The position numbers and the translations under genes are program-made. Shown one piece after another: positions 47,582 through 51,635 of a DNA stretch of 64,000 bases. Each line of letters begins with the position of its first letter. Positions within the stretch are counted from its first letter, which is position 1. The stretch is from a virus (taxonomy: Duplodnaviria; Caudoviricetes), in IMG/VR virus record IMGVR_UViG_3300037067_003400, positions 32,001 to 96,000 of that record; one strand, 5' to 3'. The notes beneath the pieces are model-generated. The model was given only the letters and a program-made list of their open reading frames with translations. It did not search any database and had not been told where the DNA came from.

Positions 47582-48170
47582 ATATCAGCAAGTAGCTGGA
47601 GAAATCTTTCAGACAGAAAAGGGATTTCTTCTAATGTTAGATAATGGTTTAGCTCTAATAGTTCATGATGAAAAGCAGATGGCGGGATACAAATTCTTCC
47701 CAGAATTTAAAGATGAGACTATTAGACAAGAAACTATTACTAATATGATAGGAGCAGAAGACTTAACTGCTGTTTTCTTGGAGTCTATACTTGAAGAACC
47801 AGTTGATAAGTTTGATCTTGAATATTTTATACACAATGCTCGACAGGTTGTTACCTTTCAGATTAGTCATTCTACTTTAGATTCCAGGGATGCTGGTACA
47901 GAGTACATGAGAGCTACTGAACTTGGTAACAAGGTAAGAGCAGGTGGTGATGTACATACTTTACTACGTGAGTATTTTACTGCTACTGCATTAGACAAAG
48001 ATATGTTATATAAATATTTGAAAAGGGAAGCTAGTGAAGAAGCTAGAGCTTTTATTGATGACGTTCTTACACCGATTGGTGAATATTTTGGAGGAAACGA
48101 TGAGCAAAGTGAAGATACTGAGGAAGAGAAGACTGGGAACTCAGACCCCGAACCAGCAGCAGTTAGTTGA
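47574..48170 (+). CDS. hypothetical protein
   Basis: ORF coupled to the sigma factor gene. Confidence 0.65.
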   Translation: MTEYQQVAGEIFQTEKGFLLMLDNGLALIVHDEKQMAGYKFFPEFKDETIRQETITNMIGAEDLTAVFLESILEEPVDKFDLEYFIHNARQVVTFQISHSTLDSRDAGTEYMRATELGNKVRAGGDVHTLLREYFTATALDKDMLYKYLKREASEEARAFIDDVLTPIGEYFGGNDEQSEDTEEEKTGNSDPEPAAVS

Positions 48171-48927
48171 TGGATTTGGCAAGCCTATAGTGCAGACTTG
48201 GCAGAATCCTGCTAACAAGGGTGCAACTACTCCTGCTGTAGAGGTGGTTAGAACTCCGGTTAGCTTGTCTCCAGAACTGGGGAAACTTTTCCGTCAGCAT
48301 TCTTTTGATACTAAAGTAACTTTTGATGCTACTAAAGTAATGGTTCACATATCTCCTATTGCGATGGAGAAAATGTACTATTATGTAGGTATAGTAGCAG
48401 ACGAAGTCAGCTGGATGGGTAAAGTTACAAGGCTAAATAATACAGAGTTTCTTATTGAAGATGTCTATTTAATAGATCAAGATGTGCACCCTACTACTAC
48501 CGAGTTTACTAACGAAGGTAATACAGAATTCCTTACTAAGCTTGTAGAAGAAGAAGGTATAGAAGCTGTCAATAAGATTAGGCTTTGGGGGCATAGCCAT
48601 GTTAAGATGGGAACTACTGCCAGCACAGTAGATGACGAACAGATGAAAGAATTTAGTCAAGTTAATGACGACTATATGATTAGACTTATAGCTAATAAGG
48701 ATGGTAGGATAGAGCTTACCATATATGACTGGAACAGAAATCTGAAGATCGCTGACGCTCCATGGTCTCTCTTTGTGTGTATGGATGATGAACTTCAGAA
48801 TGCTATTAAAGAGGAAGTAAAGGAAAAAGTATTCGTTAAAAAGAATACTGTCACTACCTATGCTAACCAGGGTTACAATGGCAGAAACTATGCTGGTGGT
48901 GGTGCATGGAACCATGAAGGAGTATAA
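48100..48927 (+). CDS. JAB/MPN+ (Mov34) metallo-isopeptidase
   Basis: DEVSWMG (catalytic Glu) and LWGHSHVKMGTTASTVD (HxH-x7-S-x2-D). GGAGG RBS before ATG 48100. Confidence 0.85.
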   Translation: MSKVKILRKRRLGTQTPNQQQLVDGFGKPIVQTWQNPANKGATTPAVEVVRTPVSLSPELGKLFRQHSFDTKVTFDATKVMVHISPIAMEKMYYYVGIVADEVSWMGKVTRLNNTEFLIEDVYLIDQDVHPTTTEFTNEGNTEFLTKLVEEEGIEAVNKIRLWGHSHVKMGTTASTVDDEQMKEFSQVNDDYMIRLIANKDGRIELTIYDWNRNLKIADAPWSLFVCMDDELQNAIKEEVKEKVFVKKNTVTTYANQGYNGRNYAGGGAWNHEGV

Positions 48928-48929
48928 CT

Positions 48930-49604
48930 ATGAATTATAGCAGACAGCTTGCTGTTATAGATCCTAACGACTTAAAAGATTTAAGAGTTGATCTTATAGG
49001 AGCTGGTGCTGTTGGTTCCTATATCTCTTGGGAGTTGGCTAAGATTGGAACTAAGAACATGCACTTGTGGGATGCTGATATAGTGCAGGATCACAATGTG
49101 TGTAATCAAATGTTCAATCTTGAACATGTTAATAAACCGAAGGTTCTGGCTGTAGCTGAAATGCTGAAAGCTGGAACTGGTATGATGCCTTCTATGCATG
49201 CTCAAATGGTAGAAGGTAAGACTGAATTTGGTGACTATGTATTTCTTGCTGTGGATTCAATGAAAGTAAGAAAAGATATATGGGAACATAGCATCAAAAA
49301 GAATAGGCATATCTCTCGTATGATAGAAGTACGTATGGGTGCTTCTGATATGCGAGTATATACGATTAATCCAAACCTACCTGAAGACATAGTAGGTTGG
49401 GAAGATAGCCTCTACTCAGATGATGAAGCAGAGGTTTCTTTGTGTGGGAGCTCCGTGTCCATTGCTCCAACAGCCATGCTGACTGCTTCCTTAGCAGTAT
49501 GGCAGTTAATTAGATCCGTTAAGGGAGACCTCAACATAGAGTCCGAGGTGATCATGTCCACAAGGGCAATGGGACTTTATACGAACAAGTTCGTACCAAG
49601 ATAA
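48930..49604 (+). CDS. ThiF/E1-like ubiquitin-activating enzyme
   Basis: IGAGAVGS, WDADIVQDHNVCNQ, KPKV, LAVDS, candidate catalytic Cys in EVSLCG. Confidence 0.9.
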   Translation: MNYSRQLAVIDPNDLKDLRVDLIGAGAVGSYISWELAKIGTKNMHLWDADIVQDHNVCNQMFNLEHVNKPKVLAVAEMLKAGTGMMPSMHAQMVEGKTEFGDYVFLAVDSMKVRKDIWEHSIKKNRHISRMIEVRMGASDMRVYTINPNLPEDIVGWEDSLYSDDEAEVSLCGSSVSIAPTAMLTASLAVWQLIRSVKGDLNIESEVIMSTRAMGLYTNKFVPR

Positions 49605-49633
49605 AAATAAATTCTATAGGAGGAATCAATCTA

Positions 49634-49837
49634 ATGGTACATATTATTACAGTAGGTGGAGTTACAAGTTCAGTTCGCTATAGCGCAGGGGCAACTATTG
49701 CCAAGATTCTCGAAGCAGCTGGCATCAATGCTGATGGCTTTGAGGTCAAGTACAATGGTGTAAGAGCCACATCTCTTGATCAGACCGTTTCCGAAGACGG
49801 CACAATTCTCTTAACTCGCAGAGTTAAAGGAGCCTAA
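49634..49837 (+). CDS. ubiquitin-like (beta-grasp) protein
   Basis: 67 aa, GATIAKIL..AGI, VKYNG, DGTILLT, C-terminal VKGA; lies between E1 and E2. Confidence 0.8.
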   Translation: MVHIITVGGVTSSVRYSAGATIAKILEAAGINADGFEVKYNGVRATSLDQTVSEDGTILLTRRVKGA

Positions 49838-49877
49838 TAAAAACTAACTACAAGATGGACACTTTGTAGGAGCTTAC

Positions 49878-49910
49878 GGGAGAGGGTCTTTGACTCTCTC
49901 CTGGTTTTAT
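49878..49910 (+). terminator. hairpin or terminator between the Ubl and E2 genes
   Basis: GGAGAGGGTC/GACTCTCTCC followed by GGTTTT. Confidence 0.55.
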
Positions 49911-49949
49911 TATAGGTTACACATGTAACCTTTGTTGGAGGATAAAACA

Positions 49950-51635
49950 ATGGATTATGTATTTGTAGTTACAGAAAATCCAGATACTATACTTGGAAAC
50001 TATGGTTCCACTGCGTTTACTGATGATGGGCGGTCGGGAGTTCTTATCCCAGAGGACAGAGTTATAGAATATCTTAATGATATACATGTTCCAGCTGCAA
50101 GAGCAAGTAGATCTAATACAATTTATGCGGGTATAACAGAGCTTACTATTGCGCCTGAAGCTATAACTACTGATGGAGCTACTCTTGAAAGAGAAGAAGT
50201 TATAGCAGATCCAGAACGTGATGAAGATGATGAAGAAGATGAGGATCCTGAAACTGATGAGCCTATAGAAGAAGCTCATGTTGAAGCACCCACTCCTGCA
50301 CGTAATGCTGATGGTGGAAGAATGGCTATACCAATTATAACTGAGGCTGCGCCTGATCCAGATGATGGTGTTAAGCTTAATCCAGAAGATTTTAAAAAGA
50401 GATTTGGTTTTGCTTTAGAAACATGTAAAGGAAATTCTACTGAGTTTCATAGGTTACCTTCTAAAGCTGATAGTACTGGGAATAATATAACCCACGAAAT
50501 TTATATTCCTTGGATGCATAGTGCACAGATTCTTTCTCAAATTATTCCTATTGTAAATGCGTCAGGAAGAGGAGTATCTGTAACCTGGAGCGGTATGGAT
50601 CCTGTTAATCAGTACCCAAGAAATTGGGATAACATGGCTCCACATAATCGTAATATATCTAAAGTTATATTTTATGGTGGTCCTGTTACTGCTGGGCAAG
50701 AGTTTATAACTATAGAGGGTAAGAGCTATGATTTTAAAACTAATGTAGCTAAACTTACAGGGGTTGCTGCTCCAAGATTTGAGTTAGTAACAGATGACAA
50801 GCATGCAGTTATTGCAGCTATAGATACTCAGACGGATAACTTCCATGTCTTTTTAAATTACGGAAGTGCTAGTCAACCATATCCTATGGGGCTTATAAGA
50901 TATATATTTGATGCTTATAAAATATATATATATGCTAAGTTTGGTGTTATGGAAGGTGGCTCTGATCTTGATAGGCTAACTAATAATATCAGAGTAGGTT
51001 TAAAGAAGAAGTTTGTAGTACAGCAAACACAGAAAGCTCAAGCAGAAAGAGATGCATTTATTCATATGCAGGCTCATCAAGAAGAGTATTACAGAGCTAT
51101 TCAAGATTATCAAAAAGCTAAAGACGATCTTAATAAGATATCTGTTGATGAAGAAACATATCTAGGTAAAGTTCTTAATAATATATTAGCTATTAAATCT
51201 GTTATGGGTGTTGAAGATATATCTGTTTCTGGGGATATTATTACCGTCCGAACGAGTATGATGTTCTGTTTAGATCCAAGAGTTAATATAGTTAGAAGGA
51301 TTGGAGTCTTTGATATTCTCATAGATAAGAACACTTCTAAGATATCCTTTAGAAATAATACCTTGTTAGTGAAAGGGTATAACTCTGATTGGTGTCATGC
51401 TCCCCACATATTTGGTAATGGGTCAGCTTGTCTTGGAGATCTTCAGAATTTAGTTCCCAGTTTACTTACATCAGATGATTATGTAAGTGTAGTAGCTATG
51501 TGTATAGACTTCTTGCAGAGTGCTGCTGTATTTGATTCTGCTGGAAAGTATGTTCATAGGTGGCCGAAGGCTACTGATAAAGAAGCTGAACAATTTAGAA
51601 AAGAGTATCCTGTTATAGCCAGAGCTAAAATATAA
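49950..51635 (+). CDS. multidomain protein with C-terminal E2/UBC-like conjugating domain
   Basis: HAPHIFGNGSACLG (cf. HPN(I/V)xxxGxICL) after a coiled coil; acidic N-terminal linker; GGAGG RBS before ATG 49950. Confidence 0.75.
   Translation: MDYVFVVTENPDTILGNYGSTAFTDDGRSGVLIPEDRVIEYLNDIHVPAARASRSNTIYAGITELTIAPEAITTDGATLEREEVIADPERDEDDEEDEDPETDEPIEEAHVEAPTPARNADGGRMAIPIITEAAPDPDDGVKLNPEDFKKRFGFALETCKGNSTEFHRLPSKADSTGNNITHEIYIPWMHSAQILSQIIPIVNASGRGVSVTWSGMDPVNQYPRNWDNMAPHNRNISKVIFYGGPVTAGQEFITIEGKSYDFKTNVAKLTGVAAPRFELVTDDKHAVIAAIDTQTDNFHVFLNYGSASQPYPMGLIRYIFDAYKIYIYAKFGVMEGGSDLDRLTNNIRVGLKKKFVVQQTQKAQAERDAFIHMQAHQEEYYRAIQDYQKAKDDLNKISVDEETYLGKVLNNILAIKSVMGVEDISVSGDIITVRTSMMFCLDPRVNIVRRIGVFDILIDKNTSKISFRNNTLLVKGYNSDWCHAPHIFGNGSACLGDLQNLVPSLLTSDDYVSVVAMCIDFLQSAAVFDSAGKYVHRWPKATDKEAEQFRKEYPVIARAKI

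Follow-up and report, generated by a model that had tools for sequence, protein, structure and literature searches.

The 64,000-nucleotide stretch of DNA analysed here (hereafter, the window) covers bases 32001–96000 of a 210,951-bp IMG/VR virus record (IMGVR_UViG_3300037067_003400; CheckV completeness 98%) and contains four consecutive genes, all on the plus strand according to both the open reading frame (ORF) calls and a reading of the DNA, that encode a JAB/JAMM family metalloprotease, an E1-like adenylating enzyme, a small ubiquitin-like protein (Ubl) and a large protein with a C-terminal domain resembling ubiquitin-conjugating enzymes (UBC, or E2) (Table 1). The record encodes a large terminase, which indicates a phage origin, and the window additionally contains a phage RNA ligase and members of further PHROG families; its GC content is ~36%, and almost all of its genes are located on the plus strand. 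The initial annotation of this DNA described a JAB-E1-Ubl-E2 cluster at positions 48100–51635, and the four genes with all the quoted motifs are indeed found there. From the folds, the motifs and their conservation, and the conserved linkage of the genes, we consider it likely that these genes of a jumbo phage form a self-contained Ubl-conjugation cassette from a family that had not been named before.

Table 1. The genes, domains and intergenic hairpin of the cassette (positions are those of the window)
Feature	Positions	Strand	Basis
JAB/JAMM metalloprotease, 275 aa	48100-48927	+	motif, family profile
Minimal single-domain E1-like adenylating enzyme, 224 aa	48930-49604	+	Pfam ThiF, family profile
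Ubl, beta-grasp, 67 aa, end V-K-G66-A67	49634-49837	+	family profile, invariant G66
Terminator-like hairpin, Ubl-E2 intergenic	49877-49903	+	DNA reading, RNA fold
E2-like protein, 561 aa	49950-51635	+	ATG after GGAGGA, UBC model
N-terminal region of E2-like protein, ~400 aa	49950-51146	+	acidic low-complexity stretch, long helix
UBC/E2-like catalytic domain (predicted)	51147-51635	+	AF2 model, Foldseek, conserved loop

The same four families are linked in other genomes. Altogether, 26 loci were collected from contigs encoding homologues, from a peptide-pattern scan of IMG/VR and from a DNA-pattern scan of species genomes; 24 of these are distinct, with L008 repeating L007 and L009 repeating L005. 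Searches with family-specific HMMs detect the E2-like and JAB genes in all loci, and the E1 and Ubl genes in every locus located on an uncut contig, except that the Ubl was not found in L027; two cut-off contigs contain the E2-like and JAB genes only. Because the four families are adjacent in 24 other loci, at ~30% protein identity, the cassette is not a chance arrangement. Several gene orders occur: E2(-E2')-JAB-E1-Ubl is the usual one, and JAB-E1-Ubl-E2 is found in the window and in L006, the phage contig of 216,899 bp that is its nearest relative. Among these loci, the neighborhood of the cassette contains no conserved fifth gene; apparent extra conserved neighbors turned out to be antisense shadow ORFs of the four genes. 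Many loci (L003, L004, L012–L018, L024 and L025) encode a second E2 paralog, and such loci often encode two different Ubl domains as well. In every locus, the primary paralog carries the invariant His and Cys of the UBC-like loop (see below); the second paralog retains both residues in L003 and L012–L018 and has lost both in L004, L024 and L025, where it resembles the ubiquitin E2 variants (UEV). Pairs of an active E2 and a Cys-less paralog, the E2/UEV pairs, also occur in eukaryotes.

The JAB gene starts with the ATG at 48100, with GGAGGA upstream (the mechanically called ORF begins at a GTG at 48034), and 71 nt at its start are shared with the end of the preceding ORF. The protein contains the JAMM motif WGHSH-x7-S-x2-D exactly as originally read, and the active-site residues are E102, H165, H167, S175 and D178 (nt 48403–48405 and 48592–48633). 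As a single query, the window protein yields marginal matches (RPN11, 0.065; PADLOC JAB, 0.021); the top match of the family profile is BRCC36 (4.7e-3), followed by JAMM1 and RPN11-like proteins. At least 90% of the rows of the family alignment retain the full JAMM signature (E102, H165, S166, H167, S175 and D178). The conserved E...HxH...S..D pattern and the matches of the profile to BRCC36, JAMM1 and RPN11 support the assignment to the JAB family, and the protein can be regarded as a putative Ubl-processing and deconjugating enzyme. In L007 (and likewise in its repeat, L008), the JAB gene is split into two ORFs ~250 bp apart (5462–5782 and 6036–6608), and in L019 the E1 gene is split into two overlapping ORFs (3165–3834); frameshifts, inserts or assembly errors could account for these splits. 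A second, more distant JAB paralog of 326 aa (1e-56 to the family HMM) is encoded on the minus strand of L005, a 212-kb phage contig, at 1797–2777, ~5 kb from the cassette.

The identity of the E1 likewise holds. The protein contains LIGAGAVGS and SLCG and matches the Pfam ThiF family (5e-17), and the profile of its family (21 members) matches UBA1 (5e-15), followed by MccB, UBA6, UBA5, ThiF and MoeB. With the single sequence, the nearest PDB chain is Cap2 (1.8e-5), and the closest PADLOC models correspond to the E1 part of CBASS Cap2. The invariant or nearly invariant columns include the N-terminal RQ(L), G24-x-G26-x-x-G29, D48, D50, K71, D109 and R114, and Cys172 (nt 49443–49445), which is predicted to form the catalytic thioester, is invariant in 21 sequences. 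The protein falls under every equivalog cut-off in NCBIfam: the best score, with ThiF, is 49.6 bits vs a cut-off of 159, UbaA scores 18 bits vs a cut-off of 450, and the MoeB cut-off is also missed by a wide margin.

The Ubl gene is preceded by a good ribosome-binding site, and the encoded protein ends in RRVKGA. Its single-sequence matches, to SAMP2 and DUF348, are weak, and the family profile matches PF1061 (1.6e-6), SAMP2 (5.9e-6), ubiquitin (8.8e-6), ThiS (4e-4), MoaD (1.3e-3) and SAMP1. The penultimate residue, Gly66, is the sole invariant column of the family alignment. At the sequence level, the profile matches to SAMP2, ubiquitin, ThiS and MoaD, together with the invariant glycine, bear out the suggestion that the 67-aa protein ending in KGA is a beta-grasp Ubl. 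Across 24 Ubl ORFs, the C-termini conform to [VI]-K/R-G-[N/A], followed by 0–21 more residues. The Ubl genes of L004, L007, L008, L010, L011, L012–L017 and L018 encode two or three head-to-tail beta-grasp domains, every one of which terminates in K/R-G-[N/A]; the Ubl gene consists of two domains throughout L012–L018, and in L012–L017 these two differ from each other. Tandem repeats of this kind were counted in 11 of the collected loci, 10 of them distinct. In eukaryotic polyubiquitin, too, the Ubl repeats follow one another head to tail, and the last Gly is followed by one extra residue. By analogy, the tandem Ubls resemble polyubiquitin precursors and, because each repeat ends in K/R-G-[N/A], as in polyubiquitin, the JAB would be expected to cut them at these junctions. 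The junction itself is R-G-G in polyubiquitin and K-G-N/A in this family, and the parallels with eukaryotes are analogies.

The hairpin that follows the Ubl gene in the window is real: it has a 12-bp stem, a 3-nt loop and a T-rich run after it, and the Ubl-E2 intergenic RNA folds at -38.3 kcal/mol (z = -5.6 vs shuffles). The idea that this hairpin attenuates transcription in favor of the Ubl over the E2 does not describe a conserved feature because, in most relatives, the E2 gene comes first; in the nearest relative, L006, the hairpin is not kept as a plus-strand terminator. In this particular phage, it may lower the amount of E2 relative to the Ubl.

The fourth protein, which contains HAPHIFGNGSACLG, starts at the ATG at 49950 after GGAGGA; the mechanical ORF from the TTG at 49932 is 567 aa long. 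Its UBC-like loop reads A-P-H-I-F-G-N-G-S-A-C-L-G and includes His486 and Cys494 (codon 51429–51431), which are residues 492 and 500 in the 567-aa ORF. The protein matched no Pfam, PHROG, PADLOC or NCBIfam family; for the window protein and 10 relatives, no Pfam family, including UQ_con, Prok-E2_A to Prok-E2_E and DUF6527, matched at E<=0.1, and the profile of the E2 domain has no meaningful match among PDB sequences. A word-index search of 5.8 billion proteins with the E2-like protein retrieved only the query itself, and GenBank phage records gave no match with blastn (the region) or tblastn (the E2 protein) at the sensitivity of these searches. An exhaustive HMMER search identified 1089 cluster representatives at E<=1e-3, which match the last ~180 residues of the E2-like protein only. 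The invariant residues of the resulting alignment are G, N, P-H, G, C, G, D, G and P, with the loop PH-x4-G-x2-C-x-G, and the family consensus is APHVFxxGxACLGN ... ESVNVDDxAGxxIxxWP.

An AlphaFold2 (AF2) model of the C-terminal ~160 residues, made with the family alignment as input (pLDDT 91.2), consists of a helix, a beta-meander, a loop with the P-H and Cys, and three to four helices. The best 50 Foldseek matches of this model in the PDB are all E2 enzymes (E 0.02–0.14), and an exhaustive structural scan (VIA) is led by UbcH10, UBE2E1 and UBE2K (Z 7.2–7.5 over 117–126 residues; for UbcH10, Z 7.5, rmsd 3.6, 117 residues), with E2 and RWD-type folds almost throughout the remaining list. The closest ESM Atlas clusters are unnamed; one of them is bacterial and two are viral (TM 0.72–0.76), and the next one is a bacterial ‘E2 variant’ cluster (TM 0.44). 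The invariant His-x7-Cys loop is located where E2s carry HPN...Cys. Because the Z-scores are modest, it is this loop, together with a hit list made up almost purely of E2 and RWD-type folds, that carries the case for a UBC domain, and the modeled structure is consistent with the originally proposed E2 assignment of the C-terminal domain. In P0003–P0006 (~645–654 aa), the E2 domain is matched in two stretches, with ~200 extra C-terminal residues; these proteins may be fusions of two E2-like domains.

Neither BLAST nor jackhmmer identified a relative of the N-terminal region of the window protein among 186 family members, a language-model atlas search with this region gave no match, and against the HMM of the N-terminal region common to most of the family it shows a weak collinear match that is broken by the acidic insert. 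The model contains long helices, one of which leads into the UBC domain. The common N-terminal region itself is ~270 aa long (143 of 179 proteins fall in one BLAST cluster) and, when modeled on L007 (pLDDT 83), shows no clear known fold, with Foldseek E >= 0.07 and no PDB sequence match. Its best structural match is to glutamine-amidotransferase-like alpha/beta domains (VIA Z 5.7). Binding of a substrate or partner is a candidate role for this part of the E2-like protein.

We hypothesize that the cassette would function as follows. The JAMM protease would remove Ala67, exposing Gly66, and in the relatives would cut tandem Ubls between K-G and the following N or A. The minimal ThiF-type E1, probably a homodimer, would adenylate Gly66, and the Ubl would probably be taken onto Cys172, then handed to Cys494 in the UBC-like domain at the C-terminus of the 561-aa protein and, finally, transferred to a lysine of the target. 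Because no E3 is present, the target would be chosen by the N-terminal part of the E2 itself; the 561-aa protein would thus be a combined E2/E3, in which the N-terminal region and the long helix bind the target or oligomerise. The JAMM protease may, in addition, undo the modification. Trimming of Ala67 is predicted by analogy, from the conserved G-[N/A] junctions of the tandem Ubls and from type II Bil operons, in which BilA also ends in Gly-Ala and is trimmed by its own JAB (PMC10557695).

Several observations weigh against this reading. No target or effector is evident. The UBC Z-scores (7.0–7.5) are in the range flagged as common for unrelated folds, Cys494 could not be superposed on the catalytic Cys of E2s, and the loop contains P-H rather than the classical H-P-N, with no equivalent of the catalytic Asn identified. 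Furthermore, the tandem repeats need not be precursors because Bil and Bub systems do not cleave their multi-domain Ubls into monomers (PMC11601603), and the true mature end of the Ubl is uncertain because the residue after the Gly is itself conserved (N or A). A prediction of the E1-E2 domain complex, run without controls, scored 0.00 and is evidence neither way.

An alternative that has to be considered is that the E1, Ubl and JAB make up a sulfur-carrier or other non-protein acyl-adenylate system of the ThiS/MoaD/SAMP type, with the large protein serving as a UBC-shaped scaffold. The E1 is minimal and ThiF-sized, the closest solved relatives of the Ubl and the JAB are SAMP2 and JAMM1, respectively, SAMPs also carry sulfur, and many members of the UBC/RWD fold are non-catalytic. 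However, the whole 210,951-bp record was found to encode no ThiG, MoaE or rhodanese in searches whose positive controls worked, in agreement with the initial statement that sulfur-transfer genes are lacking nearby, and the E1 is far below the NCBIfam cut-offs for ThiF, MoeB and UbaA. Because these sulfur-transfer genes are absent, and because the other three genes are always found together with an E2-like gene whose loop Cys is invariant (as is the loop His in the primary paralogs), a sulfur-carrier role appears improbable, and Ubl conjugation to proteins is the reading that we adopt.

Comparison with the characterized systems suggests that this conjugation cassette is best described as a new family or variant of prokaryotic ubiquitination-like operons, which lacks a defining feature of each of Bil types I and II, Bub, Cap2/Cap3 and sampylation. 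Type II BilABCD (6C/CEHH; Chambers et al., PMC10557695) resembles the cassette in having separate genes for the Ubl, the E2, the JAB-family deubiquitinase (DUB) and the E1, in Ubls that end in Gly-Ala or in Gly with a short tail, removed by the JAB in Bil, and in that the Ubls may hold several beta-grasp domains (PMC10557695). In contrast, the type II Bil E1 is a multi-domain protein (IAD + AAD + Cys domain; PMC10557695), whereas the cassette E1 is a single 224-aa domain, and the type II E2 is small, with a Cys-Glu-His-His signature, whereas the E2 of this family is ~500 aa long, with an N-terminal domain, a long helix and PH-x7-C. The cassette E2 shows no sequence match to Bil E2s in the Pfam, PADLOC and PDB-profile searches. 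Type I BilABCD (6D; Hör et al., 2024, as described in PMC11601603) shares the four-part Ubl/E1/E2/JAB logic but is bacterial, whereas the cassette is phage-borne. Moreover, the invariant His of the 6D E2 follows the Cys, with no His preceding it (PMC1779556); in the cassette, the His is located 8 residues before the Cys, and the alignment contains no invariant His after the Cys.

With CBASS, the likeness consists of the E1 Rossmann part of Cap2, which is the best single-sequence PDB and PADLOC match, and of a JAB partner, present in both systems. Cap2, however, is an E2-E1 fusion that conjugates the CD-NTase, with no free Ubl, whereas the cassette genes are separate and include a Ubl; in the phage genome, SMODS, the CD-NTase family, gives only a sub-threshold, stop-ridden match. 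Among the components of the archaeal SAMP2/JAMM1/UbaA system, SAMP2 is the closest solved relative of the Ubl and JAMM1 is among the closest of the JAB; sampylation similarly employs a minimal ThiF-like E1 but lacks an E2. Like the cassette, Bub (6E/DUF6527; PMC11601596) is a diverged bacterial E1/E2/Ubl/peptidase operon with multi-domain Ubls, but it employs serine oxyesters, has no catalytic cysteines, and encodes a serine protease or a peptidase-E1 fusion (PMC11601596); in the cassette, by contrast, the Cys is invariant in both the E1 and the E2, and the peptidase is a JAMM enzyme. At the sequence level, the cassette proteins do not belong to the UQ_con or ubiquitin families.

The IMG/VR contigs that contain the cassette are 9–217 kb long, most of them >110 kb. 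One narrow peptide pattern matched 14 IMG/VR contigs, most of them 110–217 kb long. A narrow peptide pattern had no true match on species-genome contigs; with a hand-made DNA pattern, nine matches, seven of them true, were obtained in species genomes. The seven contigs from metagenome-assembled genomes (MAGs) come from Saccharibacteria (four) and from Cytophagia, Thermoanaerobaculia and Gammaproteobacteria (one each). In three of the Saccharibacteria loci, the neighbors are MurJ, a glycosyltransferase, RNase Y, RsmE, and FtsI with MraW, and in the fourth an AAA ATPase adjoins the cassette. Judging from these neighbors, the copies beside housekeeping genes are chromosomal. The initial conclusion that a virus carries the machinery stands, given the terminase in the record, but the cassette is not confined to phages. 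The E2 domain is rare in cells, being found in 4 of the 401 Patescibacteria and 2 of the 401 Acidobacteriota genomes sampled. In the E1 tree, the window belongs to a supported set (95/88) of nine rows, all from phages, whereas MAG and phage rows are mixed in the other half. All annotated family members are named ‘hypothetical protein’, and Pfam, NCBIfam and PADLOC contain no model for the E2, JAB or Ubl of this family. We found no paper on a phage-encoded E1-E2-Ubl-JAB system in the open-access literature; absence there is no proof.

These distributions bear on the role of the cassette. We tentatively favor, within the conjugation reading, a role in conflict, i.e., tagging of a host or rival-phage protein, by analogy with Bil tagging of tail proteins (for type I Bil, a phage tail protein is the tagged substrate in the account of Hör et al., 2024, cited in PMC11601603). 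A conflict function is favored by the sporadic distribution in cells and by what Bil and Cap2 are known to do. Alternatively, the same conjugation could serve immunity rather than host takeover, the cassette being a mobile anti-phage defence, in the Bil sense, that the phage carries to exclude competitors. All the characterized bacterial relatives act in antiviral immunity (PMC10557695, PMC11601603), the sporadic occurrence in Patescibacteria and Acidobacteriota is a pattern typical of defence islands, and the mixing of MAG and phage rows in one half of the E1 tree fits this possibility as well. Conversely, the E1 of the window belongs to the all-phage set, where two E2s and a di-Ubl suggest long residence; because this phage-only clade has elaborated cassettes, a function that serves the phage is favored. 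In addition, PADLOC models match neither the E2 nor the Ubl, and the three Saccharibacteria loci that were checked are flanked by housekeeping rather than known defence genes. We accordingly regard the defence role as a serious but rather unlikely alternative to tagging on behalf of the phage.

The surroundings of the cassette in the window include a sigma factor, an SSB-like gene, a ribonucleotide reductase (RNR) and Ro60 genes. A phage sigma-70-family factor (46862–47581; Pfam regions 2, 3 and 4) is encoded two genes upstream, and the ORF between it and the JAB gene (47574–48170) encodes a 198-aa protein with an acidic tail and no family match. Downstream (~1.7 kb) is a Ro60 homologue (53403–54998; TROVE, 6.7e-41; Ro60 vWA, 3.5e-57), which is preceded by an RNA-rich gap (52400–53400) with an odd tRNA-like gene whose anticodon consists of four bases (tgaa; 52957–53033, ARAGORN). 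Further on, a 1164-aa ORF (55639–59133) appears by eye to encode an RNR with an intein-like insert, and a tRNA-Asn (59128–59215) directly follows it. In other loci, an SbcC-like ATPase (~790 aa) adjoins the cassette in L002, L010 and L020, accompanied in L002 and L020 by an SbcD-like 372-aa protein, with a weak Metallophos match in L002.

This context is relevant to yet another possibility, namely, that the cassette is no weapon but is self-directed, modifying structural or replication proteins of the phage itself during assembly or maturation. JAB-Ubl pairs are known in the tail-assembly modules of lambdoid phages (PMC1779556), and inheritance of the cassette is stable in one group of related large phages. 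The genes around it in the window, however, are not structural, no structural gene is conserved beside it, and the copies in bacterial chromosomes have no phage genes next to them. Self-modification is improbable in our assessment, and a role in conflict is the one that we retain.

To our knowledge, the only role described so far for Ubl conjugation in bacteria is immunity of the host to phages, exerted by Cap2, Bil and probably Bub. The cassette combines cysteine-based motifs, a classical-looking E2 loop with a His before the Cys, a minimal E1 and polyubiquitin-like precursors, and is hosted by jumbo phages and, rarely, by bacterial chromosomes, among them those of Saccharibacteria with their tiny genomes. 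If it is active, a large unannotated family (>1000 clusters at 50% identity) would be added to the ubiquitination-like pathways, and a compact four-protein system without a separate E3 would become available for studying target choice by E2-type enzymes. The E2/UEV-like pairs and the tandem Ubls bear on the origin of eukaryote-like features of ubiquitin signalling. In our estimate, the chances are about even that the genomes of giant phages specify a whole ubiquitination-like pathway, different in family from Bil, Bub and Cap2 and with polyubiquitin-like precursors and E2/UEV-like pairs, that tags proteins of the host or of rival phages during infection. An active cassette would mean that viruses of bacteria also use Ubl tagging and, on the reading just given, it would be the first such conjugation system in a virus of prokaryotes and would mirror those with which bacteria tag phages.

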